DNA from: Candidatus Aminicenantes bacterium UBA1061
GTDB lineage: Bacteria; Acidobacteriota; Aminicenantia; Aminicenantales; Saccharicenantaceae
Assembly: GCA_002316315.1 (NCBI GenBank)
Contig: DCDG01000018.1
Coordinates: 56,074 to 120,073 of the forward strand
Direction of reading: 5' to 3'
DNA length: 64,000 bases
How positions within the stretch are numbered: the first letter of the stretch is position 1; each line of letters begins with the position of its first letter. Below are positions 15,577-63,556 of the stretch, piece by piece. The translations under genes and the position numbers were made by a program. The notes beneath the pieces were generated by a model. That model had not been told where the DNA came from and did no database searches. It saw only the letters and a program-made list of their open reading frames with translations.

Positions 15577-15592
15577 TTCTGATAATAATTAA

Positions 15593-36641: not shown

Positions 36642-36791
36642 TAACTTTCTCCTTTCTGATGGTTATTTTCTTGACGAGGTCTGAATATGGTTCGTCTTTT
36701 ATTATTACTATAATAATAATGAAACGACTTATTTTCATCGCTGTCAAATATTTTGTGCCACAAGATTAATACACTATATTTTCTCTTTCGG

Positions 36792-37045
36792 TTTAAAAAA
36801 TCCAGAAAAGGCGCAGTTTATAAGACGGGGACAGCCATCAGACTGAAGCCGCACTTCAGCCCGAAGAAAGCACACCGGCGGCGAACCAAAAGCAAGAGCC
36901 TTCCTCTGGCCAACACCTTTGAGCTACCTGATCTCGCCTTCAAAAAGATAAAAATAAGTCAGCCCTTTGGCTGTCCTGATTTCCCGGGCATCTACTACCC
37001 GCACAGCCAGCTCGACCACTTGTCCGGCAATTCCCTGAGGTGAGC
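36792..37045 (-). repeat. Copy B of the dnaE2 3' terminus (about 250 bp; reading frame kept except for one stop)
   Basis: About 88-90% nucleotide identity to 52653-52920. Minus-strand translation gives ...GQVVELAVRVVDAREIRTAKGLTYFY..., matching the DnaE2 C-terminus. Confidence 0.8.
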
Positions 37046-37124
37046 GATTGGGAGAAGCGGCCTTCAGCTTAGAGCTAATGGTAAGCTATCTCCTGGGCCG
37101 TTCAGCATCTTTTTAGCCTCTAAC

Positions 37125-39901: not shown

Positions 39902-40200
39902 TTCAAAAATGAACTTATTAGGGTGATAAAAAAGTGTGAAGGAAGGCGCAGTTTATAAGGCGGGGGCAGCTGTCAGACTGAAGCCGCACTTCAGCCCGAA
40001 GAAAGCACACCGGAGGTGAGCTAAAAGCCAGGGCCTTCTTCTGACCTACGCCCTCAACCTGCCCGCTCTCATCTTCGAAAAGACAAAAATAAGTCAAGCC
40101 GCGCGATGTTCTGATTTCCCGGGTATCCATTACCGGGATAGCTAGCTCGGTCATCTGACGGCACAATTCCTTGAGATGTTCGATCCGCAGCGGCGGACAC
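39902..40200 (-). repeat. Copy C of the dnaE2 3' terminus (about 300 bp; ORF 39918-40217 intact)
   Basis: Encodes ...REIRTSRGLTYFCLFEDESGQVEGVGQKKALAFSSPPVCFLRAEVRLQSDSCPRLINCAFL, which is 85-90% identical to the DnaE2 C-terminus. Confidence 0.8.
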
Positions 40201-40353
40201 CAGCGAGCCCTAAGCAAACTGCTAGCTATCCTACGCCGACTTATTTTTCTTTAAGCCATTATCTTATTGATTATTAACAAATTGTGTTAGCCCAACCCGC
40301 ATTTAAATATATAAGCTCCTCCCCTACAGCACAGGGGCCGGCACCAGCAATTG

Positions 40354-41541: not shown

Positions 41542-42531
41542 TTATTTAGAGCGACCTGCGATAAAAGGCATCATAAATAAGCCCGGGTCCATTCCTTCTT
41601 CTTCCTTTTTCTTCTTTATAGCTCTTATGTCACTTTTAGTGAGTGCTCCTCCGCTGGATTCAGTATCTTCAACTGGATTAAGTTCTGTAACCTTTTTGTT
41701 TTCTATCTTGCCCATAACATAAAGACAATAGGGGTTGTTTGGTGCTTTTTCCAAAGCTAACTTAGCATAGTTCTCAGCCTCATCAATTTTCCCGGCTTTA
41801 AGAAGGGTAAAAGCTAAGGAATAAAGATATCTGGTGTTTTCTGATTTTGAAAGAGCTTCTTTCCAATAATACTCTGACTCCTGATATTTTCCCCTCCTGA
41901 AGAAGGCAGTCGCCAGGTCGCGGAAATACACTTCATTATCCTTATACTTGCTTTCCAGACCAGAGTCATCTTTTAAGGCAATCATTGACCAATTCTCTTC
42001 CTCCCCTGAGGTCCATAACTCTAAAAAATCTTTCTCTTTGACAAAAATATTTTTCCCTAAAAGAGGATCAGCTAAGACAATCGAGTCCTTTTGGTATCCA
42101 ACCACCAGTCGGTAATGTCCTTTATCGATTTCTTTTGAAGCTTTCTGAAAAACCACCACCGGAACTCCCTTTGAGATTAGCTCCTTTAAATCATTCAAAT
42201 TACCCTTAAAAGAATATGACTTCAGCCCTTTTGATTGAGGATAAAAAACCATCTCAGAGAGCTTCATCACTTTTTCCTTTTCGTCAAAAACTCTGGCAGC
42301 AACCATTTCCTGTTTTTCATCTAAGCCATAAAAATGAAGCATCATCTGCAAAACCGCTGGCCCGCACCACCCGTTTTTCTCCTGCTTATAAAATTTCATG
42401 TTTTTTATAACATTGGCTTTTTTAGGAATGGATTCAGCCTGATAGAAATAGGTATGAGAGGCACATGAAGAAAAAACGCTTATCACAAAGATTAGTAGCA
42501 AATTTTTTAGCCTTTTGTTTTTACCTTTCAT
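41542..42531 (-). CDS. Lipoprotein with a C39-like papain-fold peptidase domain (Peptidase_C39_2 type) and C-terminal TPR repeats
   Basis: Lipobox VFSSC. Candidate catalytic Cys in NGWCGPA and candidate His in KGHYRLVVGY. TPR-like repeats follow (YWKEALSKSEN..., AENYAKLALEKAPNNPY). It lies directly upstream of NHL paralog 2 on the same strand, separated by 15 bp. Confidence 0.55.
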   Translation of the reverse strand: MKGKNKRLKNLLLIFVISVFSSCASHTYFYQAESIPKKANVIKNMKFYKQEKNGWCGPAVLQMMLHFYGLDEKQEMVAARVFDEKEKVMKLSEMVFYPQSKGLKSYSFKGNLNDLKELISKGVPVVVFQKASKEIDKGHYRLVVGYQKDSIVLADPLLGKNIFVKEKDFLELWTSGEEENWSMIALKDDSGLESKYKDNEVYFRDLATAFFRRGKYQESEYYWKEALSKSENTRYLYSLAFTLLKAGKIDEAENYAKLALEKAPNNPYCLYVMGKIENKKVTELNPVEDTESSGGALTKSDIRAIKKKKEEEGMDPGLFMMPFIAGRSK

Positions 42532-42905
42532 TTATGTCCCTCAAAAATTTATTTTCCTCTCTATTTATCCAGAGGCAATTCTCCATCCCGATTGATAAGG
42601 CTTTTTTTAATTGCTCTTCGGGAGCACTCAGAGATACCCTGGTTCCAGTTTCAGAAGGGCTATACCAGATTCTCGCCCTTAGTTGCTGGAATGCTCGTTC
42701 GAATGCCAATTTTTCCCCTCGCCGTCTTTAAATATCAGTCAAAAAAAGATGCATGTCAAATACAGACCTTATTCAGGCTAGCACATAATATCCAGGGCAG
42801 ACCGAGAAGTAGAGAGGGTTGTCCACAAGGTGTTTGGCGGCTTGCAACCCTGGACGGCGGAGCAGAGGCGCAGAGATCAAAAGTTCTATAGTTTAAAAGC
42901 AAGAC

Positions 42906-42968
42906 TTCCCCTCTTAAAAGTGTTATTGAAGCTTTTAAAGGAAGGGAAGTGAGCCCCTGGGTGTCATA
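42906..42968 (+). mobile_element. Solo fragment matching the 5' end/RBS region of the IS481-like element at 50406-50468 (inverted orientation)
   Basis: About 60 bp (CCCTCTTAAAAGTGTTATTGAAGCTTTTAAAGGAAGGGAAGTGAGCCCC) are about 85% identical to the reverse complement of 50406-50468. Confidence 0.45.
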
Positions 42969-43064: not shown

Positions 43065-43318
43065 TTAAAAGCTATGGAGAAAGGCACAGTTTATAAGGCG
43101 GGGGTAGCCGTCAGACTGAAGCCGCACTTCCCCTCTAAGAAAGCACACCGGAGGCGAGCCAAAAGCCAGAGCCTTCCTCTGCCCCACGCCCTCAACCTGC
43201 CCGCTTTCATCTTCAAAAAGATAAAAATAAGTCAGGCCGCGCGACGTTCTGATTTCCCGGGCATCTACTACCCGGACAGCCAGCTCAACCACCTGTCCGG
43301 CAATTCCCTGAGGTGAGC
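43065..43318 (-). repeat. Copy D of the dnaE2 3' terminus (ORF 43065-43292 intact)
   Basis: Encodes MVELAVRVVDAREIRTSRGLTYFYLFEDESGQVEGVGQRKALAFGSPPVCFLRGEVRLQSDGYPRLINCAFL. About 90% nucleotide identity to the dnaE2 3' end. Confidence 0.8.
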
Positions 43319-43438
43319 GATTGGGAGAAGCGGCCTTCAGCTTAGAGCTAATGGTAAGCTATCTCCTGGGCCGTTCAGCATCTTTTTAGCCTCTAACTTA
43401 TTGATTATGAATGATATCCGCTGGCCCGACCCCATTTA

Positions 43439-43716
43439 GATGGCAGGTTGAAAGATAACCCGGCAGCCAGATCTTTTGACCTTCACCTTGATTTCATGAT
43501 ACTTGCCGTCCCAGCTTTCCGGAACAGGATAACCAAGAACGTAATAGGCACCGGTCAGAGTCTCAATTTTCTCAATATGGTCGGGAGCAGCATAGATTGT
43601 CCCGGTGTACTGACCTCCAGTCTTCCAGGCTATCTCTCGAAGAGAAACGGTTCCCCTTGGATGAATAGATTCCTGAATTATTAGATATGTATTATCTTCC
43701 GTATCAACCGGAAAGC
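43439..43716 (-). pseudogene. Fragment (about 280 bp) of a VWA-like gene paralog, homologous to 47237-47516
   Basis: About 88% nucleotide identity to the C-terminal coding part of the 46807-48468 gene. No start codon, and it is fused directly to other repeat fragments. Confidence 0.65.
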
Positions 43717-46806: not shown

Positions 46807-48468
46807 TCAATTTTTATCAGGCCCGGGGATGATGACAGAAGCTGCCGCCACAGCTGACTTGCCTGTCTCCATATTCCTTATGACCAGCCGGCACTTGTAA
46901 GTTCCTGGTTTAGCTGAAAGTTCACTCTGAATGGAGAGAGGTTTCTGGCGATACTCAGGTTTCGTTAGATCAAGCTCAATACGCCGGCTGTCAACTATCT
47001 GATCAAGCTGGTCAAAGAGAAGACTGACTGCTTCCACTCTCGGACCGACAACTTCCCCCAGCTCCTCCAACCGAAGCCTCGCTATGATCTGAATATTATT
47101 GGGTGGCGCAGGCGATTTAACCTGAGCCTCCATATCAAACCGTAACGGTTCGCCAGAGAGTGGCCTGGGTGAAAGAGCCACATCGACCAGGTGAATTTTT
47201 TTCTCCAGCTCTGAAAAGGAAGAAAATGGCTTCTGATTGAAATAGCCAGGTTGAAAGATAACCCGACAGCCAGGTCTTTTAACCTTCACCTTGATTTCAT
47301 GATACTTGCCGTCCCAGCTTTCCGGAACAGGATAACCAAGAACGTAATAGGCAGCGGTTAGAGTCTCAATTTTCTCAATGTGGTCGGGAGCAGCATAGAT
47401 TGTCCCGGTGTACTGACCTCCAGTCTTCGAAGCCATCTCTCTCAAGGAAGGTATTCCCTTTGCGGTCTCAGGGTACTCCAAATAGAAATTATCTTCAGTA
47501 TCAACGGGAAAGACTGAGGCATTAGCATCAGCTAACTGACGGCAGAGCTGTTCATATTCCCGGCCGAGATGAGCATTGCCATTATCAACATAGGCACCGC
47601 GACCTATATAGGCCGGGTGGATGCCGTTAGAATAAAGAAGAATGATTTTCTTCCCCTGAATATAACGCAGGGCCTGGGCGAGAGACTGCATTGACCAGAT
47701 AAAGTTAGAAGATACGATCTTGCCCGCCATTACATCATTGGACATCCGCCCAGGGCCCGAGCGTGAATATGAATCATAAGCAGCTCCGGAAGTTGCGATC
47801 TGGAATTGCGAATCAAAGAAGCGGCTCGGAGCCAGTGGCATAATATCTTTAGCCTGAATAGACTCAATCGCCCGTCGTGCTCCTTCCCGGTCACGGTCAG
47901 GCTGATGCAGAACATTGAGAACGCGGCCACCAGAAAAAGTTAAAACCCCAACCAGCATGTCCGGCTCAAGCTCTTTCTCAAGAGAGCGAAGCGCTGCCTC
48001 CCGGGCTAATTTAAATCCTCCCTGATCAGTAAACACTAAATCAAATAAATAGAGGAAGATGCGGTTTAGAAGAGGTTGCGGGGCCGGTACCTTCTCTTCT
48101 GGCTTATTTTCGACGACAGGCTCGGGTCCTTTCTTTTCAGCCGGGAGAGACATGGTGTGATTCTCAAACTCGGTCAGCAGCTTCTCCTTACCATTATCAT
48201 AAAGAATAAAGTCTTCTTTGCTCAGGTCAGTCACCGGCTGGCCTTTATCATCAGTCACCATGACATAGATGAGCTTTCTGATGACACTGACCTGGTATTG
48301 CTGGTTATCCCTGACCTTTTCCTGCCCTTGCCCCATGTTTGGCAGCAAGGAAACGAAAACGCCAACAACCAGGAAGGCCACAAGAATAATTACGATCAGC
48401 GAGCTTGAACGCCTATTCCCGGCCGAAGCTTTCCCTCTTGATAAAGCCCTGAAGACCTCAAGCTTCAT
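46807..48468 (-). CDS. Membrane-anchored VWA-like protein (resembles the VWFA-related Acidobacterial-type domain family)
   Basis: N-terminal transmembrane segment. A beta-sandwich N-domain (VMVTDDKGQPVTDLSKEDFILYDNGKEK) is followed by a VWA-like region (LVGVLTFSGG...). 553 aa. Confidence 0.45.
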   Translation of the reverse strand: MKLEVFRALSRGKASAGNRRSSSLIVIILVAFLVVGVFVSLLPNMGQGQEKVRDNQQYQVSVIRKLIYVMVTDDKGQPVTDLSKEDFILYDNGKEKLLTEFENHTMSLPAEKKGPEPVVENKPEEKVPAPQPLLNRIFLYLFDLVFTDQGGFKLAREAALRSLEKELEPDMLVGVLTFSGGRVLNVLHQPDRDREGARRAIESIQAKDIMPLAPSRFFDSQFQIATSGAAYDSYSRSGPGRMSNDVMAGKIVSSNFIWSMQSLAQALRYIQGKKIILLYSNGIHPAYIGRGAYVDNGNAHLGREYEQLCRQLADANASVFPVDTEDNFYLEYPETAKGIPSLREMASKTGGQYTGTIYAAPDHIEKIETLTAAYYVLGYPVPESWDGKYHEIKVKVKRPGCRVIFQPGYFNQKPFSSFSELEKKIHLVDVALSPRPLSGEPLRFDMEAQVKSPAPPNNIQIIARLRLEELGEVVGPRVEAVSLLFDQLDQIVDSRRIELDLTKPEYRQKPLSIQSELSAKPGTYKCRLVIRNMETGKSAVAAASVIIPGPDKN

Positions 48469-49911: not shown

Positions 49912-50030
49912 ACCATCTTCTCTTCTGAACTCCATTGTCTAAGCTTCATCCTGACACCTCCTTACTCAGTATAATCTCTATCTCTTTGAGGTGTCCACCT
50001 CCTCAGGGGGTCAGTATAACCTCTTATACT
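49912..50030 (-). mobile_element. Solo left-end remnant of the IS3-family element (inverted repeat, 5' UTR and first ~12 codons of orfA)
   Basis: About 90% identical to 59950-60070. The reverse complement begins ATGAAGCTTAGACAATGGAGTTCAGAAG, encoding MKLRQWSSE as in orfA at 59993. Confidence 0.7.
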
Positions 50031-50409
50031 TAGCACTGAGCTTGTAACGTTTAAGCACATAGCGGACAGTAGAAGGCTTAACCTCAACTCCCCGTTCGCG
50101 AAGTATCCTGGCCACCCGGTCTCGGCCAAAGCCAGTCTTCTTCCTCTCGGCTATGATCAGAGCTTCCACCGCCGCTGACGTTCTCCGAGGCGAGCGTTTT
50201 GGCCTTCGAGACAGCGGCTTCAGCCCAGCCTCTCCTCTCTCCTCCCACCGCCTTACTACCTTCCTCACTGTCTTGCGAGTCGTTCTAAACACCCTGGCTA
50301 CTTCTGAGATATTCCCACTCTCCTCATAGGCCTTAATCACTGCCTTCCTGGCGAATTCCACTGACCCCTTGAAAAGCTCACAGTAACTGAGGTATAAAGA
50401 TTCTGTCAC
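50011..50409 (-). CDS. IS481-family transposase N-terminal (HTH) fragment; the DDE integrase domain is missing
   Basis: The pattern ...GLKPLSRRPKRSPRRTS...STVRYVLKRYKL is typical of IS481-type transposase N-termini. The ORF stops after 132 aa, and its last codons run into the IS3 end remnant. Confidence 0.5.
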   Translation of the reverse strand: MTESLYLSYCELFKGSVEFARKAVIKAYEESGNISEVARVFRTTRKTVRKVVRRWEERGEAGLKPLSRRPKRSPRRTSAAVEALIIAERKKTGFGRDRVARILRERGVEVKPSTVRYVLKRYKLSAKYKRLY

Positions 50410-50575
50410 TCGGGGCTCACCTCCTTTCTTTTAAGAGTTTCAATAACACTTTTAATGGAGGGAGCCCTGCTTTTTCAAGTACCAAGCTCATAAATCTCCG
50501 GCCTTCTTCTATCCCTGTCCCTACTGCCGGCTCTCCAGCACGTCGCGACCAAAGCTCCTTACTCCTCCATCCTCC

Positions 50576-50617
50576 CTGGATACTATGTCTTAACCTGAAT
50601 GAGAAAAAGACTTGACA
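50576..50617 (+). promoter_or_regulatory. Second copy of the conserved promoter-like motif, upstream of the small peptide/NHL paralog 5
   Basis: TGGATACTATGTCTTAACCTGAATGAGAAAAAGACTTGACAG versus TGGATATGATTTACTGATCTGAATGAGAAAAACCATTGACAA. Confidence 0.4.
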
Positions 50618-50960: not shown

Positions 50961-52055
50961 ATGAGGAAAATAGGATTAAAAGGTTTACTAACATTTGTCA
51001 TTTATCTTCAGATGGTGAGTATCTGCTTCTCGCAACTAGTAAAATTAGATAAAAAAATACCGATAGAAGAAAACGCACTTATTGTCTCTGGCTCTTTTGC
51101 CCTGTTACCGAATGGAACTTTCATTTTTACCGATATTAGAGATGAGAATAACCAGATTAAAATTATCAATGACAAGGGGAAGATAATAAAAGCCTGGGGT
51201 AAAATGGGACCAGGACCAGATGAGTTCAGTGGTCTGGCAGAAATCGATTATCAGAATCCTTACTTAGCCATTATGGATGCAGGCAAAAGATGCATTCATA
51301 TTTTTGAGACAGACCTCGATAAATTCAGAAAAATAGGAGACATCCTCGCCTGGGAGGCAACAGATTTTATTAAATTATATGATAAAAGCGTTTTAATGGG
51401 CGGGTATATCACTTCGCCGAAAGGAAAGGGCTACATAGTATTCGCGAGAGATTTTAATGGAGGTAATACGCAATATATTCTTCCCTTTGAATATAAATAT
51501 GGAGAGCGTTCCTTAAGTGAACATCAAAAGACCAGAGAAGAAGTTTCAGGTATATCATCTAGAGATTATGCTGACATTTATGAAGATGACCTCTTTTATA
51601 TAAGCGATGTGAGAGTCAGGGTGATTAAGACCAATCTCAAGACCAAAAAGATAGAAATCCTCGGGAAAGATCCAAAGAATTTCAGAGCGCTGGTGATGGA
51701 TAAGAAAACCAGGAACGAATTACTGCAACCGCAAACTGGCAAGGGGAAAATGCAAGAGATTTTAAATAAATTTTCTTTTGTAACTCGTATTTTTGTTGAC
51801 AAAGACTATTTTGGCCTGATCTTTTTGAACCGGGAAAAAAAGGTCGGCAATGAACTCTATTTTGTGGCCTATGTTCAAATTTATGATCACTCTGGAAAGG
51901 TGTTGTATGAAGGTCAGCTGGAAGACTTTTATACTGAAGAGAAGATTTCTCCACTTGTTTATCAAAAAGGGACAGGCTGCTTGTATTTGCTTGGTATGAC
52001 CAGCAGTGAACTCGGCGTAAAATATGTGATTTATAAATATCAGATTAAATTATGA
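50961..52055 (+). CDS. NHL-repeat / 6-bladed beta-propeller secreted protein, paralog 5
   Basis: Signature GKMGPGPDEF, signal peptide, 364 aa. Confidence 0.65.
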   Translation: MRKIGLKGLLTFVIYLQMVSICFSQLVKLDKKIPIEENALIVSGSFALLPNGTFIFTDIRDENNQIKIINDKGKIIKAWGKMGPGPDEFSGLAEIDYQNPYLAIMDAGKRCIHIFETDLDKFRKIGDILAWEATDFIKLYDKSVLMGGYITSPKGKGYIVFARDFNGGNTQYILPFEYKYGERSLSEHQKTREEVSGISSRDYADIYEDDLFYISDVRVRVIKTNLKTKKIEILGKDPKNFRALVMDKKTRNELLQPQTGKGKMQEILNKFSFVTRIFVDKDYFGLIFLNREKKVGNELYFVAYVQIYDHSGKVLYEGQLEDFYTEEKISPLVYQKGTGCLYLLGMTSSELGVKYVIYKYQIKL

Positions 52056-52550
52056 AGAGGCTTATTTATTTTTTAGCGGCAGTAATCGTCCTTTATCTGA
52101 TCAGCGTAATTTATAAATATCAGGTAACACCAATATTGATTAATTTCCCGGTCGATGAACTGGGAATAATCCCTAAAAAGAAGTCAGGTTGAATCTTGTG
52201 CTGTTCTTTTCAAAAAAAATTGCACACCGTGTGTTCAACATATAGTAAATTATTTAAACGAGGCACCAGAAAGTATTCAGGTTGTGGGAATAGTCAAGGA
52301 GGAAGAACTAAAGTTTTTAGATGAGATTAGAGAAACAACTGGGGCGAAATTTCCAATTAAAAGCATAAAAAAATGGAAGAAATACAGACCAAATTATGCT
52401 CCCACTTTATATGGGGTTGGCTCTGATGGTAAAATATATTTTGTCATCGCTTGTACTGCCCTCGAAGAGAATTATTGGCGGGCATATGTTGATGAATTTA
52501 TGAGAAAAGCTGAATATTTGCTACTAAAACCAAGTTTAAAATCAAATTGA
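52052..52550 (+). pseudogene. Frameshifted membrane-anchored thioredoxin-like (CxxC) gene
   Basis: An ATG overlapping the NHL5 stop opens a 46-aa transmembrane-anchor ORF ending at about 52190. A different frame then continues as ...SCAVLFKKNCTPCVQH... through ORF 52284-52550, resembling the second domain of the 44040 redoxin. The frame change lies in or near A5-A8 homopolymers. Confidence 0.45.
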
Positions 52551-52652
52551 GATGTTAGATAATAAAGATGGTCTTATGATAAGAATCATGATTGTGTGGT
52601 ACTGATTCAATTTCCATTGGATATATAAGATACTTATATTTATTTGACTGAT

Positions 52653-55508
52653 TCAAAAAGTTGATAAGAAGGCACAGTTTATAAGGCGGGGGTAGCTGTC
52701 AGACTGAAGCCGCACTTCAGCCCGAAGAAAGCACACCGGAGGTGAGCCAAAAGCCAGAGCCTTCCTCTGGCCCACACCCTCAACCTGCCCGCTCTCGTCT
52801 TCAAAGAGATAAAAATAAGTCAAGCCCTTGGCTGTTCTGATTTCCCGGGCATCTACTACCCGCACAGCCAGTTCGACCACCTGACCGGATAATTCCCTGA
52901 GGTGAGCAACTCGCAGCGGCGGCCGCCGGCCATTCAGTAGCTCCAGCGGGTCGCCAGCCGGCAGGAAGCCCAGTTTTTCCAGCTGAAGTTTTTTCTTCTC
53001 CTCATCATTGATGTCTGCTACCTCGACTTCGGAGACACCATGAAAATAGTGCAGAACCTGCTGGCTGCGGTTTGGTTCAAGCGAATCAAGAGCTCCAGCC
53101 TGGATTAGAGCCAGCAGGTCGCTCTGGCCTGGTTTTACCCGTCCGAGGAAGTCTTCCACCGACAAATAGACGCCATCTCTCTCCCGCTCGTTGATGATTT
53201 TTTCTAGGCTCCTGGCGGTTAGATTTTTAATGGAACCAAGGCCAACTCTAATCGCCTTCCCTTCGACCTCAAAGCGATAACCGCTGCGGTTGACATCCGG
53301 GCCAAGGATCGTTAAGCCCAGCCTCTTAGCTTCCTCAATGTATTCCGGAAGCTGGTAGTAACCACCGGCCGCATTAAGCACAGCCACCATATAGACCAGA
53401 GGATAATGAGCTTTAAGATAAACGGCTTCATAAGCCATGAGGGCATAAGAGGCGCTATGAGCCCGGTTAAAAGAATAGGCCGAAAATTTTTCCATCTTCT
53501 GCCACAGCTCCTGAATCTCAGCCTGAGCATAGCCGCGGCTTTCGGCCCGGTCAAAGAATTTCCGGCGCAAAGCCTCATCCACCCGGCGCTTTTTTAGCTG
53601 ACGGCGCAAAAGTTCTCCTTCTTCCGGCGGGAAACCAGCCACCCTTTCTGCCACCTGCATCACCTGCTCTTCATAAAACATCAGGCCGCCGGTTTCGGGG
53701 AGAATCTTAGCCAGCAGCGGGTCTGAAGGAGAAGCCCTCCCCTCGCGTCGCCTCAGAAAGGCTTCTTTCATCCCGCTTTCAGTCGGACCAGGTCTGATTA
53801 AAGCCAGAGCATGGATTAAATCGTCCAGGTTTTCCGGCTTCATCCGGCGGAGGAGATTCATCATGGCCGGGCTTTCCACCTGAAAGCAGCCAATTGTTTT
53901 CGCTTCGCGGAGAAGAGTAAAAGTCTGGCGGTCAGCAGGCGGAAGATACTCAAGATGAAGAGTTTTTCTGGTCTCGGCTATAGCTGTCAGCCCGCGGGTA
54001 GAAAGGAGGTCAAGCTTAATAAGCTGGAGTTCTTCCACCGTGTCCCGGTCATAATGGCACATGAGGAGTCCTTTGGCTGATTTTTCAAGCGGCAGGTAGC
54101 GGTCAACTGGCGCCGGGGTCAAAATTACACCCCCAACATGGAGGGAAATCTCGGCGAAAACACCGTCCAGCTCAGAAGCCAGTTTCCAGATGTCCAGGCA
54201 GCCGGCCTGAGGCGGCATCTGCCGCAAATAATCAGGCTCGGCGAACATCGGCACCCGCTTGCTCATCGTCCTGGCTTCTTCCGGCGAGATGCCAAAAGCC
54301 CGGGCAGTTTCATAAAGGGCCGAGCGCGCCCGGTAATTCTTCAGGCTGCAGACATAAGCTGCACCGGTTTCTCCTGTCCCGTAACGTTTGAGTACATACT
54401 CCAGGACTTCATCCCGGCGGCTCGAGTCAAAGTCAAGGTCAAAGTCAGGTGGATCAGGCCGGCCGCGGTTTAAAAAGCGTTCAAAATAAAGGCCATACTC
54501 CACCGGATTAAGACGGGAAATGCCCAGAAGATAGGCCAGATAGGAAGAAGCTCCCGAGCCACGGAGATTGTGGTAGATGCCCTGGCGGCGGGCAAATTCC
54601 ACCACGTCACAAACAACAAGAAAATAAGGGGCAAAACCGCTCTCTTCAACCACCTGAAGCTCACGCACCGCCCGGGCCCTTTCTTCCCAGCTGAGATTTT
54701 TCAGCCTGGATAACCGGTCATTAATCACCTGACGCAGGGAAACAGGGAAAAGATCAGGCGGAAGAGGCGGAACAATATTTTTAAAAGAGAAATCTATTTT
54801 TTCGATAAGCTCCTGGTGGCGGCGAAAAATTGGTTTGACCCGGTCGCCATATTTTTTTAAAGCAATTTTTTCCTGCTCCGGGCCAAAATTTCTGAGGACC
54901 GGCGAAAGCCTTTTAAGTTCGGGCGGATAAGGAATTTTTTTCTCTATCGTCCGAAGGAGGACCAGGCGCGGCGCACTGGTCAGAAATTTCAGCGGCTCAG
55001 TCCAGAGAAGAGGAAACCCTGTTTTCGCTGAGAGCCACTCGCCGCCAGGCAGGTTGTTAAGACCGCAGCCAAGATAAAGATCATCCGGTGCCCGCTCCCC
55101 AATCTGGCGAATAAAACTCACCCACTCTTCGAGTTCCACTTCGGACACAGGCAGCTTTTCCGGCAGGATAAAAATGGTAGCGAGTCCATCCGGTTCCAGA
55201 AACTCCCGGCGATTAAAAATCTCAAGCAACCGGTGATAGCCCTTTTTCTCTTTGATGAGAAAAACATAGCGGCTGCCCCTTATGGGAAAATCCAGTTCAA
55301 GCTCGCAGCCAAAGACTGGCTTAAAGCCGCGCCCCTCGCTCAGGGCCTGCCACTTACCCCAGCCATAAAAAGCAGCCACATCGGTCAGGGCAGCTGCCGG
55401 GAGGCGATTTCTCTCTGCAAATTGCACGAGTTCTTCCAGGGTCAGGCTGCCTTCTCCCCGGCTAAAGGTTGAATGAACTCTTAAAGGGATAAACATTTTT
55501 GGACTCAC
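52653..55508 (-). CDS. dnaE2: Error-prone DNA polymerase III alpha-like (DnaE2/ImuC-type)
   Basis: 951 aa with a PHP N-terminal domain, a Pol III alpha core and a C-terminal OB region. It is the last gene of a lexA-dinB-dnaE operon and overlaps dinB by 4 bp. Confidence 0.65.
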   Translation of the reverse strand: MSPKMFIPLRVHSTFSRGEGSLTLEELVQFAERNRLPAAALTDVAAFYGWGKWQALSEGRGFKPVFGCELELDFPIRGSRYVFLIKEKKGYHRLLEIFNRREFLEPDGLATIFILPEKLPVSEVELEEWVSFIRQIGERAPDDLYLGCGLNNLPGGEWLSAKTGFPLLWTEPLKFLTSAPRLVLLRTIEKKIPYPPELKRLSPVLRNFGPEQEKIALKKYGDRVKPIFRRHQELIEKIDFSFKNIVPPLPPDLFPVSLRQVINDRLSRLKNLSWEERARAVRELQVVEESGFAPYFLVVCDVVEFARRQGIYHNLRGSGASSYLAYLLGISRLNPVEYGLYFERFLNRGRPDPPDFDLDFDSSRRDEVLEYVLKRYGTGETGAAYVCSLKNYRARSALYETARAFGISPEEARTMSKRVPMFAEPDYLRQMPPQAGCLDIWKLASELDGVFAEISLHVGGVILTPAPVDRYLPLEKSAKGLLMCHYDRDTVEELQLIKLDLLSTRGLTAIAETRKTLHLEYLPPADRQTFTLLREAKTIGCFQVESPAMMNLLRRMKPENLDDLIHALALIRPGPTESGMKEAFLRRREGRASPSDPLLAKILPETGGLMFYEEQVMQVAERVAGFPPEEGELLRRQLKKRRVDEALRRKFFDRAESRGYAQAEIQELWQKMEKFSAYSFNRAHSASYALMAYEAVYLKAHYPLVYMVAVLNAAGGYYQLPEYIEEAKRLGLTILGPDVNRSGYRFEVEGKAIRVGLGSIKNLTARSLEKIINERERDGVYLSVEDFLGRVKPGQSDLLALIQAGALDSLEPNRSQQVLHYFHGVSEVEVADINDEEKKKLQLEKLGFLPAGDPLELLNGRRPPLRVAHLRELSGQVVELAVRVVDAREIRTAKGLTYFYLFEDESGQVEGVGQRKALAFGSPPVCFLRAEVRLQSDSYPRLINCAFLSTF

Positions 55509-56764
55509 CTGGTAAGAGAAGCAGTTTTCAGGATAAAGCCGCGGCCTTTATCTTCCTGATAAACCTCACCCAGCATTTTTTCCCGGCCGGTTAGAACCGC
55601 AGTAAAGCCGTATCTCTCACGCACCCGGTCAAGAGCCTGAGAGAGGCGTTCATCTTTTTCCTGGTAAAACTCAAAAAGAGAAAGATGGCGCTCCTCGACC
55701 AGCCGGCTGCCTTTAACCCCGACTAGACGAAGAGCCAGGCGCGATTTATCCCACAGGTCCAAAAACAATTCCTCCGCCGCGCGGTAAATCCGGTTCATCT
55801 CCTGGACCGGCATGGACAGAAACCGGCGTTTGCTGACTGTCTTAAAATCCGAGTAGCGGGCTTTAACCTCAATCACCTGGGCATAAAATTTTTCCTGCCG
55901 TAAGGCGAGGGCCAGCCGGTCAGAAAGATAAGCTAAATGAGCCAGCAGGAGATCCCGGTCCCAGACATCCTGAAGAAAGGTAGTCTCCCGGGAGAAAGAT
56001 TCGGACTTCCCCCGGGTTTGAAGCGGACGGTAATCTATGCCCCGGGAGAGAAGATAAAGTTCATCGCCCATCACGCCGAACAAAGAACGCAGGGTGGCCA
56101 GCGGCAGCCGCCAGAGATCAGCTATTTTATGGACATTGAGCAGCCGGAGCATCACCTGGGCTTTAGGGCCAATACCTGGAATGGCGGAAATATCCAGCTC
56201 GCGCAAAAATTCTTCTTCCTCACCCGGCTGAAGCTCAAAGAAACCGCCCGGCTTGGCTCGCCTGGTGGCCAATTTGGCTAAGATTTTGTTGGAAGCCGCC
56301 CCAACCGAAACGCTCAGACCAACTTCCCTCTCTACCCGGCGTTTTATGTCCTTGGCCACCTCTGTAAAAGAAGAATATAGCTGACCGCAGCGGGTAAACT
56401 CTAAGTAGGCCTCATCCAGCGAAGCTTCTTCCACATCAGGTGTATAGTCATGGAGAATCTGGAAGAATTTCTCAGAAAAAGACTGATAGAGATGATAATT
56501 ACCCCGGACAAAAATCGCCTGAGGGCATAGTTTATAACACTCGCGAAGAGGCATACCGGAATGAACGCCATATTTGCGGGCCTCATAGGAGCAAGTAGCG
56601 GCTACCCCTCTTTCGTGCGGCAGGCCACCGACCACCAGCGGTTTACCCTTGAGGGAAGGATTGAGCAGCGCCTCCACCGAGGCAAAAAAAGCGTCGAGGT
56701 CAATATGGACGATATAACGCCTTTTTTGACAGTTGGAAAACTGAGCACCTGGTAACCGCATCAT
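55505..56764 (-). CDS. dinB: Y-family DNA polymerase (DinB/Pol IV-like; sits in the ImuB position of the cassette)
   Basis: HIDLDAFFASVE and SLDEAYLE retain the catalytic Asp/Glu residues of Pol IV. SVGAASNKILAKLA is also present. Confidence 0.7.
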   Translation of the reverse strand: MMRLPGAQFSNCQKRRYIVHIDLDAFFASVEALLNPSLKGKPLVVGGLPHERGVAATCSYEARKYGVHSGMPLRECYKLCPQAIFVRGNYHLYQSFSEKFFQILHDYTPDVEEASLDEAYLEFTRCGQLYSSFTEVAKDIKRRVEREVGLSVSVGAASNKILAKLATRRAKPGGFFELQPGEEEEFLRELDISAIPGIGPKAQVMLRLLNVHKIADLWRLPLATLRSLFGVMGDELYLLSRGIDYRPLQTRGKSESFSRETTFLQDVWDRDLLLAHLAYLSDRLALALRQEKFYAQVIEVKARYSDFKTVSKRRFLSMPVQEMNRIYRAAEELFLDLWDKSRLALRLVGVKGSRLVEERHLSLFEFYQEKDERLSQALDRVRERYGFTAVLTGREKMLGEVYQEDKGRGFILKTASLTR

Positions 56765-56784
56765 TTTCCCCTGATTTTAAAGAC

Positions 56785-57411
56785 TTAATATTTTCGAATC
56801 ACACCGGCTACCCGGCCGATGATCCGGACTTCCTTAACTTCGATCGGCTTAAAGGCCGGATTTTCTGGAACCAGCAGCACCCGGTCTTTTTCCCGGCGAA
56901 GGCGTTTTAGAGTTACTGTGCCATCTTCAAGAAGAGCTACGACCATCTCGCCCGAATTAGCTGTTTCTGCCCTTTCTATGACCACTAAATCACCGTCATC
57001 AATGTAGGCATCAATCATGCTTTTACCGGTCACTTTCAGGCAGAAAAGATTGCCACTTTTCCGCCCGGCGAACCAGGCCGGAACCTCAACGCTCTCGCCC
57101 AGGGTATCAAACATCTCACGCGGGCTACCGGCTGGAACAAGGCCAACTAAGGGAAGGCGCAACTGCTGGACAGCATCCGGCAGATAAGTGAGCCGCAACT
57201 CGCCGCCTTCTCTCCTTAAGTAACCTTTCTTTTCCAGGCTGAGGAGGTGTTTAAAAACAGCCGAGGGGTTGGCGAGGCCGGTCATCTGCCCTATTTCCCT
57301 CACCGTTGGGGCATAGCCATGGTCAAGGATAAAATCCTGGATTTTATCCAGAATTTCCTTCTGCCTTCGAGTCAGTGTCCTTTTAATTCTGTTAACCAAT
57401 TTGTTCACCAT
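56785..57411 (-). CDS. lexA: LexA repressor (S24 peptidase)
   Basis: Winged-helix N-terminus. The C-terminal S24 domain has the Ser-Lys dyad (GKSM ... K). 208 aa, placed directly upstream of dinB and dnaE2. Confidence 0.8.
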   Translation of the reverse strand: MVNKLVNRIKRTLTRRQKEILDKIQDFILDHGYAPTVREIGQMTGLANPSAVFKHLLSLEKKGYLRREGGELRLTYLPDAVQQLRLPLVGLVPAGSPREMFDTLGESVEVPAWFAGRKSGNLFCLKVTGKSMIDAYIDDGDLVVIERAETANSGEMVVALLEDGTVTLKRLRREKDRVLLVPENPAFKPIEVKEVRIIGRVAGVIRKY

Positions 57412-57507
57412 TTATAAAATAATCCCAGCCAGTGCCTTTGTCAAGAGAAAATTTTGCCGTGAGAAAATCTGGAACATCTATCTATTAAGGAGCCAGCGCC
57501 CGAGTTA

Positions 57508-57551
57508 CATGGATATGATTTACTGATCTGAATGAGAAAAACCATTGACAA
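57508..57551 (+). promoter_or_regulatory. Conserved promoter-like motif (TGGATA..CTGAATGAGAAAAA..TTGACA) in the divergent lexA/NHL6 intergenic region
   Basis: About 45 bp that are also present at 50576-50617, upstream of the peptide/NHL5 locus. The motif contains a -35-like TTGACA. Confidence 0.4.
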
Positions 57552-57607
57552 AGTGCAGGTCGGGATTTATATCAATCTGAGGTACAATAAATAAAAGGGG
57601 TTCAGGA

Positions 57608-58681
57608 ATGAAGAAGAAGAGAGTCTTTAAATTTCTGGTCATATTATTTCTCGTGGTATTTATTTACAGTGCCATATCAATACAGAAAGGAGAAGGCCAA
57701 CCTGTAGAAGTACAACAGGTAAGTGTAATCAAAAACATAGGTGAAGGAATTTATGGTCAGAAAATCAAAGACAAGATTAAATTTATAAAAGTTCTTAGCT
57801 TAGGCGCTGAAGCTGATAACGCTCCTGATTATCTTATGTTCGGGAGAAACATCAACGTTGAAATTGATCAGGGGCAAAACCTGTTTGTTCTTGATGAGCA
57901 AAATAGCAGGCTGATGAAATTTGATCAGAATGGTCGATTCCTCTGGAAAGCAAGTAGAAAAGGACAGGGACCTGGAGAAATAGAAGCTCCATTTGGGATG
58001 AAGTTAACAGAGGATGGTGGGATAGCCATAATAGATCAAGGAGGCAAGATCAACTATTTTGATGGAAATGGGAATTTTTTAAAACTGGTTAGAATGGCCA
58101 AAGAAATAAAATCTATAATCTCATTTTCGAAAGGAAAAATATTTGCCAACTTGTTTATACACGGTCAACCAGGTATAACGGCAGCCTGGTTTTCTGAAAA
58201 TGGAGAGCTTATTGATTATTTTCCTGTTGAATATTATTACGGTCCGAAACTATCCGGACGGCTAGCATATGACCTGGGTGCTAAATTCATACTCGGAGGA
58301 GATCAACTTTATTTGAGCCTTCCAGATAAGTATGAAATACAAATCTATTCCTTGAAAGGGCAGTTATTGAGGAGAGTTATCAGAGATGTAAAAATAAGGC
58401 CTCCATTTCTGGAAGAGGGCTACCGATTCGTAGTGAAAGATATATCGGGTCCGGCCCAATTAATTTCCAATGGATTCCTGATTAACGAACTGTCTCTGGA
58501 TGCGTGGACAGAGGCTGGAAAAAAATATATTGATTTTTTTAATAAGGATTTCCAGTTTCTCGGTTCTTATCCTGTTCCCAAAAATGCTTATTTAGCCAGA
58601 GTTGATAAAGACGATAATTTTTATTTTGTCGAGATTGATTCCTGGGTTAAAATAATCAAGTACAAATTAAAAATCGACTGA
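57608..58681 (+). CDS. NHL-repeat / 6-bladed beta-propeller secreted protein, paralog 6
   Basis: Signature SRKGQGPGEI, N-terminal signal or anchor, 357 aa. Confidence 0.7.
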   Translation: MKKKRVFKFLVILFLVVFIYSAISIQKGEGQPVEVQQVSVIKNIGEGIYGQKIKDKIKFIKVLSLGAEADNAPDYLMFGRNINVEIDQGQNLFVLDEQNSRLMKFDQNGRFLWKASRKGQGPGEIEAPFGMKLTEDGGIAIIDQGGKINYFDGNGNFLKLVRMAKEIKSIISFSKGKIFANLFIHGQPGITAAWFSENGELIDYFPVEYYYGPKLSGRLAYDLGAKFILGGDQLYLSLPDKYEIQIYSLKGQLLRRVIRDVKIRPPFLEEGYRFVVKDISGPAQLISNGFLINELSLDAWTEAGKKYIDFFNKDFQFLGSYPVPKNAYLARVDKDDNFYFVEIDSWVKIIKYKLKID

Positions 58682-58843: not shown

Positions 58844-59692
58844 TCATATTTGAGCTCCTGCCGATGTAGCTTCCTGTGTTTGAGCCCATTGCTGAGTAAA
58901 CTCTTCCGGGCTTAAATACCCCAGAACTGAGTGGACATAGAGCCGATTATAGTCTTCCTCTATCCAGGCACCGATTCTGGCCTCAGCTTCCTCAAAGGAG
59001 CCAAACTCATTTAACCACAGCAGTTCTTCTTTGATGGTCCGTATAACCCTTTCGGTCTCAGCATTACCCCGTGGATTGTCATATGAACAGAAAATCTGAT
59101 TAATATCCAGCCCGGCTGTCTCGGTCATAAAGGCCACCGAGGTTGGCTGCGACCCATTGTCTGAGATAAGATTTAGCCCCTGACCTCTTACTCCACAGGG
59201 AAACTTCCGACACAGTGCCCGGTCCAGTGCTTCTTTCCATTCAGAGGTCTTAGCTCGCAGTGATAGCTCCCAGCCTACTATCTCCTTGGTATACCAGTCC
59301 AGCACCACAACGAGATAACACCAGCCTGAAGAGCCTAAGATAAACTTCGTCATGTCTATTCCCCAGTACTGGTTAGGCCTGGTTGCCTTCGGTTTCCCCC
59401 TCTGGAAACTACGCACTGCTTTATGCCTCACTTGTTCTACCACCAGGCCATTTTCCCTCATCAACCTGTAAACACGCTTCTGATTAACTACAAGACCCTC
59501 CCGATGATTCAGCCAGGCTGTCATCCGTCTGTATCCCCAGAAGGGATGCAATAGCCGAAGCTCCTTGAGCTTCTTCACCACACCCCCATCCTTATCCAAG
59601 CTCCGTCTTTGCCTCTCCTTCCGATACTGCCCGCTCCGGCTTATCCCGAGAGCCTCACAGGCCGATTTCAAGCTCATCCCTCGCTCCCTCAT
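58844..59692 (-). CDS. IS3-family transposase OrfB (DDE integrase core)
   Basis: 282 aa rve-like catalytic domain (..WGIDMTKF..., ..ISDNGSQ..). It lies in the -1 frame relative to orfA. Confidence 0.75.
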   Translation of the reverse strand: MRERGMSLKSACEALGISRSGQYRKERQRRSLDKDGGVVKKLKELRLLHPFWGYRRMTAWLNHREGLVVNQKRVYRLMRENGLVVEQVRHKAVRSFQRGKPKATRPNQYWGIDMTKFILGSSGWCYLVVVLDWYTKEIVGWELSLRAKTSEWKEALDRALCRKFPCGVRGQGLNLISDNGSQPTSVAFMTETAGLDINQIFCSYDNPRGNAETERVIRTIKEELLWLNEFGSFEEAEARIGAWIEEDYNRLYVHSVLGYLSPEEFTQQWAQTQEATSAGAQI

Positions 59693-59714
59693 CAGCTCGA
59701 CTACTTCCCCGAGA

Positions 59715-59993
59715 TTAACTCTTGAGTTTTTTTAAAGCCTCAATCGCCATCGTCTGCCGCCCTATGATCTTCTCCAGTTTCTCTATCTGAGCTTGAAGCA
59801 CCTTCGTTTCATCCTCACTGCCCCCGTTGCTTAATCCCTTCTGACCAGCCTCCAAAAACCTGTCCCGCCACCGATAATACAATGCCTGGCTTATCTGATG
59901 TTCCCGACATATCTCAGCTACCGATTTTTCCCCCTTTAACCCCTCCAGCACTATGGCCATCTTCTCCTCCGAACTCCATTGCCTTAGCTTCAT
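59715..59993 (-). CDS. IS3-family transposase OrfA (HTH)
   Basis: 92 aa. The IS3 OrfA-like sequence ends ...ALKKLKS at the A7 slippery site. Confidence 0.75.
   Translation of the reverse strand: MKLRQWSSEEKMAIVLEGLKGEKSVAEICREHQISQALYYRWRDRFLEAGQKGLSNGGSEDETKVLQAQIEKLEKIIGRQTMAIEALKKLKS
59727..59733 (-). promoter_or_regulatory. A7 slippery heptamer for programmed -1 ribosomal frameshifting (OrfAB fusion)
   Basis: Seven consecutive A on the coding strand at the end of orfA, overlapping the upstream extension of the orfB frame. Confidence 0.6.
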
Positions 59994-60413
59994 CCTGACA
60001 CCTCCTTATTCAGTATAAACTCTATCTCTCAGAGGTGTCCACCTCCTCAGGGGGTCAGTATAAACTCTTGACGGCCCCCCTAAGTTGTCGGCCGAATATT
60101 TTTCATGATTTTCTTCTTGCCCGGAAGGAGATGTCCGGCTGAATTCTGGCGCTTTTGACCTTATCCGGGTATTCTGTGCCCATCTCCGGCCTTTTTTTGC
60201 TCAATTTGACGCCCACGCTTAGTATTTTCTATCATTCCTGCACTGGGGATGGGGCAAAATTGGCGCAGGAGCAACTGTCCGGCCAGCACAGCAGAAAACC
60301 AAATTCTTATCTGTTAATCCATGGCCTTTGGCACTCCTGGAAGTTTCAGCCCGCCAACCTGTCTTAATGATGTTATTCTATCTGTTAGCCCAAGATGCCA
60401 AAAAATTGCCAGC

Positions 60414-62263: not shown

Positions 62264-63556
62264 TTATTTACTGGCTGAGGGGTCAACTACCCTGCCCATG
62301 AAAAGAATATTGCCGGTAGCTCTGTCCTGAATAATAAAGATAAACGGATGGTCAGCTCTGAAAACCAATTTTTTCACAACCATAGTTACCCCGACGACCA
62401 GGCCCGTAGCGGCTGCCGCTTCTGTTCCCTCCTCATTGACCTCAACAAAGGCCTGGTGGACGACCTCGCTCAGATAAAAATCCCGCCGCCCATTGATTCC
62501 GGAAAAATCTGCTTCGGCCGGGGAAAAGGCGGTGGGCATGCCCATTCTGCCCAGTATGCCCTTTTTACCGCCCATCATGTATTTGGTTTCAAATTTGAAT
62601 TTCGGCAGATAAATATCAATCTTTTCAGATCTCAACTGTTTTTTGTACTCGTTTAGCTTCTCGGCCGTTAGGCCCGGCTCAAGGCTTTTCAAATCTTTTT
62701 TAGGCAGGAGAACCAGCATGGATATTTCCTGGCCAGCGTAAGGAAGTTCTACCAGTTGCAGCTCATCATTTTCCAGATAGTTAAATCGCTTCTCCCTGAT
62801 AGACATCATCGGCACTTTAACTTTCTTCTCCGGGGTGACCATGAATTCTTCCTCTCTGGTGTTGCCCGGAGGGAACTGATTTTCCCAATTGCCCTTAAAA
62901 TAAATGGCGTTGGTCAGAACCAGGCGGGTTAGCTGGTTAAGAACGCCAGGCGGAATTAAATCCTTAATTCTGTTATTGGTCTGTTCTTCAACCCAGTGGT
63001 TTATTATTAGCCGCGAGTTCTCAGTTTCCCTGGCAAAATCCAGATCCGACACTTTCCCGCCGTAATATTTTTCGACCGGGCTGACATATTCAGTTAGAAG
63101 CGGATAGGCTTTCTGAGCCCAGAGGGCATTGGCCGTGCGGAGCTCATATTTTTTGTCCTTCTTATTGATCAGATTAATAATCTCCGCAAATTCCTCTCTC
63201 ATCACCTCGAGACTCTCAGGATAATGAAAAACCTGCTTGATTTCCTGGGCGGTTTGGCCTCTGGCTCCTTCATAGGTCATGGCCATGGCTGTCGACAGAC
63301 TAAAAGGTGAAAAGAAAATATTGCCTGCGTTGTCTTTAAGGTTCAAATAAAGCTCAAAGGCGAATTGATTGGTAGCCGAAGCTATAATGTTCTCTTCATT
63401 CCGGAAAAGCTCCTCTTCACCCTTCTGACTCTCCTCATTGACTAATTCGCTTTTAATTTTATGATTCACCGAACCTCCAGCTGAACAAAATATTGTCCCG
63501 GCAATCAGCAAAGGGGTAAGAGCCAGCACCCAGATCAGTTTAGACCAATTTTTCAC
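62264..63556 (-). CDS. Serpin (serine protease inhibitor), secreted
   Basis: 430 aa with a signal peptide. The serpin core (FSPFSLSTAMAMTYEGARG) and a reactive-centre-loop hinge (GTEAAAATG) are present. Confidence 0.75.
   Translation of the reverse strand: MKNWSKLIWVLALTPLLIAGTIFCSAGGSVNHKIKSELVNEESQKGEEELFRNEENIIASATNQFAFELYLNLKDNAGNIFFSPFSLSTAMAMTYEGARGQTAQEIKQVFHYPESLEVMREEFAEIINLINKKDKKYELRTANALWAQKAYPLLTEYVSPVEKYYGGKVSDLDFARETENSRLIINHWVEEQTNNRIKDLIPPGVLNQLTRLVLTNAIYFKGNWENQFPPGNTREEEFMVTPEKKVKVPMMSIREKRFNYLENDELQLVELPYAGQEISMLVLLPKKDLKSLEPGLTAEKLNEYKKQLRSEKIDIYLPKFKFETKYMMGGKKGILGRMGMPTAFSPAEADFSGINGRRDFYLSEVVHQAFVEVNEEGTEAAAATGLVVGVTMVVKKLVFRADHPFIFIIQDRATGNILFMGRVVDPSASK

Follow-up and report, generated by a model that had tools for sequence, protein, structure and literature searches.

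The DNA analyzed here, a stretch of 64,000 nucleotides (nt) hereafter called the window, derives from Candidatus Aminicenantes bacterium UBA1061 (assembly GCA_002316315.1, contig DCDG01000018.1, positions 56,074 to 120,073 of the forward strand) and hosts three adjacent genes encoding a LexA repressor, a Y-family DNA polymerase and a short C-family DNA polymerase (lexA-polY-dnaE). Judged by gene content, motifs, architecture, conservation and synteny, these genes probably make up a genuine LexA-headed, two-polymerase translesion (SOS) operon, which is well conserved. The corresponding minus-strand open reading frames (ORFs) are found in the ORF list of the window exactly where a first-pass annotation, made from the letters alone, had placed an SOS translesion cassette of lexA, Y-family and DnaE2-like genes, and both the ORF positions and the domain and profile matches bear that description out. 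The same is true of the location assigned to the cassette, as both flanking genes, NHL5 and NHL6 ("paralogues 5 and 6"), encode beta-propellers of the DUF5128/NHL type (Table 1). The spacing between lexA and polY is 20 nt. The polY and dnaE reading frames overlap by 4 nt, or are separated by an 8-nt gap if dnaE starts at the ATG at 55496 and encodes 947 residues; dnaE genes of relatives are annotated from the equivalent ATG. Rfam and tRNA scans gave no match in or near the cassette.

Table 1. Features of the lexA-polY-dnaE locus and relics of the dnaE 3' end. Positions refer to the window; in the last four rows they refer to the locus named.
Feature	Position	Strand	Support or identity	Remarks
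lexA, LexA repressor, 208 aa	56785-57411	-	LexA_DNA_bind and Peptidase_S24 domains	
polY, Y-family polymerase, 419 aa	55505-56764	-	IMS, IMS_C and HHH domains	
dnaE homologue, short C-family polymerase, 951 aa	52653-55508	-	PHP, DNA_pol3_alpha, finger and HHH_6 domains	
NHL5, DUF5128/NHL beta-propeller gene	50961-52055	+	domain search	outside the operon
NHL6, DUF5128/NHL beta-propeller gene	57608-58681	+	own promoter motif, 57510-57550	divergent from lexA
Sigma-70-type promoter	57416-57444	-	10/12 positions matched	TTGACA 57439-57444, 17-nt spacer, TATTTT 57416-57421
Candidate LexA operator	57391-57409	-	direct repeat GGTGAAC-AAATT-GGTTAAC	half-site GGTNAACA, 12-nt period
Relic F1	36808-37062	-	86% identity	last ~80 dnaE codons, frameshift and in-frame stop
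Relic F2	39915-40204	-	83% identity	truncated dnaE 3' end, no start codon
Relic F3	43081-43335	-	88% identity	truncated, shares the F1 frameshift
L001 relic	15528-15840		91-92% to own dnaE	-254..+59 relative to stop
L004 relic	12471-12833		98-99% to own dnaE	-302..+60 relative to stop
L010 relic	14072-14385		97% to own dnaE	-311..+2 relative to stop
L015 relic	12183-12827		94-95% to own dnaE	-608..+36 relative to stop

A search of species-representative genomes with the DnaE protein returned 21 loci, all of them in metagenome-assembled genomes (MAGs) of Ca. Saccharicenans, Aminicenantes or Acidobacteriota, with protein identities of 78-97%, which identifies the window as DNA of a Saccharicenans-like Aminicenantes bacterium. 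The order lexA-polY-dnaE is kept in every Saccharicenans locus (16 or more genomes). The operon is also found in three distant Aminicenantes (loci L022-L024) in which DnaE is about 60% identical to that of the window; the source of L022 is a complete 4.4-Mb genome (CP070825.1). In a further lineage, represented by L034 (DnaE 44% identical), the operon is again present, and L033 carries the polY-dnaE pair. In all lineages polY and dnaE either overlap or are separated by 0-37 nt.

The LexA protein passes the TIGR00498 model (177.9 bits, cut-off 110.95), and is made up of a winged helix-turn-helix (HTH) domain (PF01726, 5.4e-20) and an S24 peptidase domain (PF00717, 7.4e-29). The Ala-Gly cleavage site (VPAGSP, residues 92-97) and the serine and lysine of the catalytic dyad (within GKSM, 129-132, and TLKRL, 167-171, respectively) were assigned by motif comparison with Escherichia coli LexA, from established knowledge. 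On these matches the lexA product is a canonical LexA repressor. The window has a TTG (57399) at the position where lexA starts with ATG in relatives, and an in-frame ATG further upstream (57411); this first ATG is missing in the related locus L017. The true start is probably the TTG at 57399, and the lexA transcript may be leaderless, or carry a very short leader devoid of a Shine-Dalgarno sequence.

The Y-family protein is, by its motifs and scores, a catalytically intact polymerase of the Pol IV/DinB type, and not an ImuB. It passes the Pol IV equivalog model NF002677 (317.8 vs. 256), and is 31% identical to E. coli DinB vs. 18-19% to three ImuB proteins. The best match in PDB is 7yll, "DNA polymerase IV" (2.1e-75), and every one of the best relatives with a solved structure is a Pol IV or a Dpo4. 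Both catalytic motifs, D22-L-D24 and S115-L-D117-E118, are intact, and DxD and SLDEAY are kept in all homologues; when aligned with these, the three ImuB references turn out to be devoid of the catalytic residues. Motifs and NF002677 score uphold the earlier view of a DinB-like protein with intact catalytic residues in the place usually occupied by ImuB. The arrangement had also been described as atypical; the active polymerase at the ImuB position is real, but has already been published for Bacteroidetes (PMC6511836, PMC8565304).

The C-terminal tail of PolY features two motifs downstream of the little finger. The first, LSLFEF (residues 361-366), is of the clamp-binding type; the second, LSQALDRVRERYGF (374-387, extended as LSQALDRVRERYGF..VLTG, 374-393), is similar to the RecA N-terminus (RecA-NT-like motif), as matched by eye, without statistics, to the E. 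coli RecA N-terminal oligomerisation motif. Motifs of the RecA N-terminal oligomerisation type are present in most Y-family tails (Timinskas & Venclovas 2019, PMC6511836). PolY contains no ImuB-C domain, the tail past the RecA-NT-like motif spanning about 30 residues vs. about 150 in ImuB. The extreme C-terminus, GFILKTASLTR (409-419), is kept in every lineage that has the operon, recurring as (F/Y)(I/V)LKTASLT(R/K) in L022-L024 and L034, and might be the peptide by which PolY docks to its DnaE partner. No imuA ORF fits in the 20-nt interval between lexA and polY, and none was called in the L022-L024 and L034 operons, the survey of these loci being confined to the operons.

The 951-residue DnaE homologue is DnaE2-like by architecture and context, though not proven to be a DnaE2. 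The catalytic aspartates are kept (PDFDLD, KLDLL). The protein ends at about residue 1076 of E. coli DnaE, right after the OB fold, and consequently has no tau-binding C-terminal domain (CTD); a deletion is found where E. coli DnaE has the internal clamp motif QADMF, and the core is short. The resulting PHP-Pol3-(HhH)2-OB architecture without CTD is the one by which DnaE2/ImuC proteins are recognized (PMC3919608): the CTD belongs to the typical DnaE1 architecture, found in ~91% of DnaE1 proteins, and is carried by no DnaE2. In Bacteroidetes, DnaE2 proteins typically have reduced PHP and thumb domains and, as a result, a short core (Timinskas et al., PMC3919608). To the extent that architecture and context define it, the short DnaE2-like polymerase originally annotated is confirmed.

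The profiles are less specific. Only the superfamily model TIGR00594 passes its cut-off, the scores being 536 vs. a cut-off of 1002 for DnaE1 (NF004226), and 476.8 vs. 939 for DnaE2 (NF004225). Compared with a reference set drawn from plasmids and E. coli and including four DnaE2, E. coli DnaE1, a Streptomyces plasmid DnaE and Bacillus DnaE3, the protein is 25-28% identical to the four DnaE2, and 27-29% to the DnaE1 and DnaE3 references. A HMMER search over 1.8 billion representatives identified four sister clusters of 903-951 residues, 44-46% identical to the DnaE homologue, and beyond these a broad cloud of proteins mostly ~1,000-1,100 residues long. Eight of the nine relatives sampled (three from sister clusters, six from the cloud) score below both the DnaE1 and the DnaE2 cut-offs.

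The first-pass annotation had considered that the locus might belong to core replication, the 951-residue protein being the replicative DnaE of the genome, and the Y-family protein a housekeeping DinB. One half of this picture was found, as the Y-family protein does group with DinB; moreover, the active site of the DnaE homologue is intact, and the DnaE1 profile scores slightly above the DnaE2 profile. The other half is not borne out by the architecture. Since both the tau-binding domain and the internal clamp motif are missing, the DnaE homologue is very unlikely to serve as the replicase, and a locus whose DnaE has no replicase features would not be a core replication locus. The short core, the distribution of the CTD among DnaE1 and DnaE2 proteins reported above, and the presence of lexA at the head of the operon in every lineage also speak against core replication, which is highly improbable.

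The control region of the operon is compact. The sigma-70-type promoter upstream of lexA is the top promoter-like site within 52000-57700, and both its hexamers (-35 and -10), as well as the distance between them, are kept in 16 Saccharicenans loci and in L022-L024. The region from just after the -10 hexamer to the lexA start, overlapping that start, is occupied by a direct repeat (GGTGAACA-N4-GGTNAACA) that is a strong candidate for the LexA operator. The sequence GGTGAACAAATTGGTTAAC (57391-57409) is the sole match in the window. No second operator copy was found in the window, in 25 loci (L001-L024), or in the lexA-polY gaps of L022-L024. The consensus of the repeat, GGTGAACAAA(A/T)TGGTNAAC, is invariant, and directly follows the TTGACA-17-TATTTT promoter. 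All the other Saccharicenans loci carry GGTGAACAAAATGGTTAAC at this position, distant Aminicenantes GGTGAACAAAATGGT(A/G)AAC, and L024 a perfect tandem of two ATGGTGAACAAA units; an invariant direct repeat marks the lexA promoter in all 20+ loci. The element GTGAACAAAATGGT[T/A/G]AAC is unchanged in every related lexA promoter, down to ~60% protein identity. In L017, L022 and L023 the upstream ATG is missing and the first half-site is not translated, hence the invariance of this half-site is not a coding effect.

The direct repeat with a 12-nt period is the only conserved box-like element in the lexA promoter. The known LexA boxes GAAC-N4-GTTC, GTTC-N7-GTTC and CTGT-N8-ACAG were compared by eye with the same region, and none fits. 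A GTTC-N7-GTTC box is said to have been reported for Acidobacterium capsulatum by Mazon and co-workers in 2006. In L034 (GCA_053997435.1, positions 2640-2690) the promoter TTGACA-17-TAAATT is followed by two tandem copies of AGGCGAAAAT, placed directly before the lexA ATG. The architecture is the same and the half-site is another, which hints that operator and repressor co-evolve.

Taken together, predicted operator binding, damage induction, a PolY-DnaE complex and a division of labour between the two polymerases would give the following scheme. In the undamaged cell, LexA bound to the direct-repeat operator would shut off the lexA-polY-dnaE transcript. Upon DNA damage, RecA filaments would trigger self-cleavage of LexA at the Ala-Gly bond by the Ser/Lys dyad, and the operon would be derepressed. 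The active DinB-type polymerase would then dock to the beta-clamp via LSLFEF, and to RecA via the RecA-NT-like motif. The co-translated short DnaE homologue, having neither a clamp motif nor a tau domain of its own, would be brought to the lesion by its Y-family partner, and would extend from the bypassed lesion. The Y-family protein would do for the DnaE homologue what ImuB does for DnaE2, and RecA would replace ImuA.

Some observations weigh against a two-polymerase SOS operon of this kind. The Y-family protein is equipped to act alone, and the PolY-DnaE complex is a conjecture. In sequence, DnaE2 references are no nearer to the DnaE homologue than DnaE1 or DnaE3 references (25-29% identity; 476.8 vs. 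536 bits). The direct repeat partly overlaps the first lexA codons, and its conservation could in part stem from coding. In L022 the interval between lexA and polY contains a terminator-like element, a GC-rich hairpin with a T-run behind it (AAAAAAGGGGACAGTCCCCTTTTTT, positions 6600-6640); in some lineages co-transcription may be partial, or read-through into the polymerase genes attenuated. The two polymerases could be co-regulated and yet independent, PolY working by itself as an SOS-inducible Pol IV, and the DnaE homologue being a separately acting, or decaying, paralogue. The Pol IV equivalog match, the clamp motif of PolY and the lack of ImuB-C, the known DnaE2-binding region (PMC6511836), fit this alternative, but polY and dnaE remain tightly spaced or overlapping down to 44% DnaE identity, the DnaE homologue retains all its catalytic aspartates and has no clamp motif of its own, and the peptide at the end of PolY is strongly conserved. 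Independent action of the two enzymes is, on this evidence, unlikely, and a joint translesion module is the preferred interpretation.

The chromosomal setting of the operon can be traced by a pair of genes encoding an Orn/Arg decarboxylase and a DUF72 protein, which reside at 30071-32376 in the window, and a few kb downstream of dnaE in L022-L024. A seryl-tRNA synthetase gene and two tRNA-Ser genes adjoin the pair. Between dnaE and the decarboxylase gene lie 2.7-6 kb in L022-L024 and ~20 kb in the window; in the close relative L002, where dnaE is directly followed by a M64 peptidase gene, the distance is ~4.7 kb. Because the operon is found at one and the same chromosomal site throughout the class, and also occurs in a lineage with a DnaE only 44% identical, the cassette is, on the evidence of gene order, an old, fixed chromosomal locus, vertically inherited and not mobile. 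The suggestion that it behaves as a mobile or recombinogenic unit holds in part only: mobility is contradicted by the class-wide conservation of gene order and of the decarboxylase-DUF72 pair, and recombination is in evidence only at the 3' edge. The recombinogenic part is the slot immediately downstream of dnaE, and not the cassette; this slot is a variable site of insertion and amplification, with duplicated dnaE 3' ends on either side.

Sequence identity between the window and L002 is mosaic, as monitored in two regions of the window (29500-36700 and 52650-57500). Values are 78-81% between 29.5 and 31.5 kb, 84-99% between 32 and 36.5 kb, and 91-99% over the cassette, which suggests either a homologous-recombination tract exchanged between lineages, or a chimeric MAG contig.

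The genes flanking the cassette belong to an array of seven DUF5128/NHL propeller paralogues, each featuring a signal-peptide-like N-terminus. Pairwise identities among paralogues are 16-25%, and NHL5 is 16-21% identical to the other six. With such values the paralogues would not be products of recent duplication and mutation, and appear to be ancient relatives rather than recent copies altered in situ. Neither the close relative L002 nor the distant L022-L024 have the array next to the same cassette. When the window is compared with L001, a genome of the same species, array modules are ~95% and the cassette ~96% identical, with no local excess of substitutions. NHL6 has its own promoter, more than 100 nt away from the candidate operator. 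A 41-nt element (CTGAATGAGAAAAA..TTGACA) is shared by the regions upstream of NHL5 (50577-50617) and NHL6 (57510-57550), and is probably a common promoter or regulatory site of the paralogue family. Translesion polymerases act in trans at lesions, not in the vicinity of their own gene.

The first-pass annotation had raised the possibility of a damage-inducible local diversification of the array. Given the divergence of the paralogues and the absence of the array in close relatives, this idea is unsupported, and the separate promoter of NHL6 also goes against it. In its stronger form, it would make the operon a mobile mutagenesis cassette that diversifies the adjacent propeller array after damage. 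The GC content of the cassette is higher than that of the window (52% vs. 45%), an IS3 element lies 1.4 kb upstream, dnaE relics are scattered in the array, and identity to L002 drops from 91-99% in the cassette to 78-81% in the more distant flank, all of which would fit such a cassette. Against this stand the class-wide synteny, the low identity of the paralogues, the lack of the array beside the cassette in L002 and L022-L024, and an identity to L001 that is no lower in the array than in the cassette; moreover, no known mechanism aims a translesion polymerase at neighbouring genes. A mobile, locally acting mutagenesis cassette is scarcely credible, and a vertically inherited SOS operon is retained.

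Repeats and insertions are found at several places in the array. The IS3-family element (58844-60069; orfA 59715-59993, orfB 58844-59692) is inserted between propeller genes on the lexA side. A 113-nt partial copy of its end is found at 49913-50025, adjoining an ORF (50011-50409) similar to HTH transposases. A 63-nt inverted repeat (83% identity, 42895-42957 and 50412-50474) spans 7.5 kb of the array. Genes for secreted, protease-related proteins are numerous nearby, encoding a M64 (IgA-peptidase-like) protein, a BNR/sialidase-like protein, a C39 peptidase-TPR protein and a serpin (34128-36641, 38518-39645, 41542-42531, 62264-63556).

The claim that the 3' end of dnaE is repeated through the array was found to be correct. 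The segment at 52640-52930 has three direct, truncated copies upstream, each ~260-290 nt long (F1, F2 and F3 in Table 1), which are 83-88% identical to it and all devoid of a start codon. The possibility that the relics are stand-alone OB-fold proteins was rejected, since start codons are missing, F1 and F3 are frameshifted, and F1 is interrupted by a stop. Next to F3 lie two further sequence scraps, a ~100-nt copy of the end of the NHL404 gene (43336-43438, like 37063-37165), and a 195-nt copy (95% identity; 43444-43638) of an internal piece of the gene for a 553-residue protein (47247-47441). They look like the scar of a collapsed copy of a module of the L001 type (557aa-BNR-NHL404-relic), which L001 itself has in intact form.

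Similar relics are found in relatives (L001, L004, L010 and L015; Table 1). Relics from different genomes are only 72-84% identical, vs. 91-99% to the dnaE of the same genome, a pattern suggesting that duplication or gene conversion has recurred. In relatives, the interval from dnaE to the relic holds one to three genes, which encode secreted proteins or outer-membrane proteins (OMPs); no integrase was found in any of these inserts. A gene encoding an OMP-beta-barrel-like protein is located directly upstream of the relic in L004 (11520-12344), L010 (12977-13930) and L015 (11182-12174). These genes are homologous but only 25-29% identical between species, whereas the DnaE proteins of the same species are each ~78-83% identical to that of the window, and therefore the slot looks hypervariable, or subject to allele swapping.

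Two simple origins of the slot were discarded. An integrative island, with an integrase targeting the dnaE 3' end, does not fit inserts devoid of an integrase, nor repeats that far exceed att sites in length and whose boundaries vary by species (-254, -302, -311 and -608 relative to the dnaE stop). A simple tandem duplication of dnaE and its neighbour, as the first event, does not fit either, as the genes flanking the relics in L004 and L015 differ and have opposite orientations. Unequal crossover between repeats explains the later amplification in the window. In the simplest view, the slot evolved in steps. A segment would have been inserted once, together with a duplicated dnaE end; the direct repeats would then have permitted loss, gain or tandem amplification of units made up by insert and repeat, through homologous recombination and gene conversion, and the window would represent the most expanded version.

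Relative to the putatively LexA-repressed operon, the slot is located directly downstream, for the most part in the same orientation. Genus-wide, the final 250-600 nt of dnaE might act as a portable homology arm bracketing a slot in which genes of secreted and outer-membrane proteins are swapped and amplified, in a RecA-dependent and integrase-free manner, so that damage could both transcribe and reshuffle the slot; relics would be kept 91-99% identical to the resident dnaE by gene conversion, or by repeated re-creation. This extension of the model is speculative, and rather doubtful.

Systems in which LexA is linked to translesion polymerases are known in many bacteria, imuA-imuB-dnaE2 cassettes of this sort being widespread (PMC4951493, PMC3919608). 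ImuA-less variants have been described, one of them in Bacteroidetes, where two polymerases that both seem to be active, a Y-family protein of the PolY2 group with a RecA-NT-like motif and a DnaE2, are paired (PMC6511836). Operons with an active PolY and DnaE2 often include lexA (Timinskas & Venclovas 2019, PMC6511836), and one SOS network of Bacteroidetes has dinB-dnaE operons as its core (Sanchez-Osuna et al. 2021, PMC8565304). The operon described here looks like an Aminicenantes member of this already described ImuA-less, active PolY plus DnaE2 variant. As in the PolY2 group (e.g. Cellulophaga algicola), an intact PolY is encoded directly upstream of a CTD-less, short-core DnaE, ImuA and ImuB-C are missing, PolY carries a RecA-NT-like motif, and a repressor gene is linked, as it often is in Bacteroidetes. 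The host, in contrast, is a member of the Aminicenantes (Acidobacteriota), and the likeness is one of architecture. Moreover, LexA is canonical here and a CI-like, non-canonical LexA there, and the candidate operator is a direct repeat vs. GGA-N5-TCC in Bacteroidetes.

The lexA-imuA-imuB-dnaE2 cassette, as outlined in PMC3919608 and PMC4951493 (Abella 2004; Erill 2006; Warner 2010, cited therein), shares with the operon the link to LexA, the order of a Y-family gene before a non-replicative dnaE, and a presumed role in damage-induced translesion synthesis. The operon differs in lacking imuA and in having an active Y-family protein devoid of ImuB-C (18-19% identical to ImuB, 31% to DinB), and its DnaE homologue scores below the DnaE2 cut-off of NCBIfam, with 25-28% identity to the four DnaE2. 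The operon lexA-imuB-C-polY of Geobacter sulfurreducens, as reported by PMC6511836 (Jara 2003), is likewise headed by lexA, with an active Y-family polymerase and no ImuA. According to the same account a standalone ImuB-C is present there and DnaE2 absent, the reverse of what is found here. The Alphaproteobacteria LexA box GTTC-N7-GTTC (PMC4951493) resembles the candidate operator in being a tandem direct repeat on a GAAC/GTTC core, not a palindrome. The spacing of the candidate is one base longer (GAAC-N8-GAAC, 12-nt period), and its half-site is also longer (GGTGAACA).

The novelty lies in the clade that hosts the operon, in its canonical LexA and operator candidate, and in a DnaE clade falling outside both curated models. 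The findings leave the current understanding of SOS mutagenesis unchanged. With its duplicated 3' ends, dnaE offers a small example of the end of a gene anchoring recombination at a variable locus for surface proteins. A DnaE clade that fits neither the DnaE1 nor the DnaE2 model indicates that profiles cover non-replicative C-family polymerases poorly. For the Aminicenantes, a widespread and uncultured clade whose SOS regulon is undescribed, the direct repeat provides a concrete LexA-operator candidate, and the ImuA-less SOS module with two active polymerases would be extended from Bacteroidetes to this clade, and to at least one further lineage.

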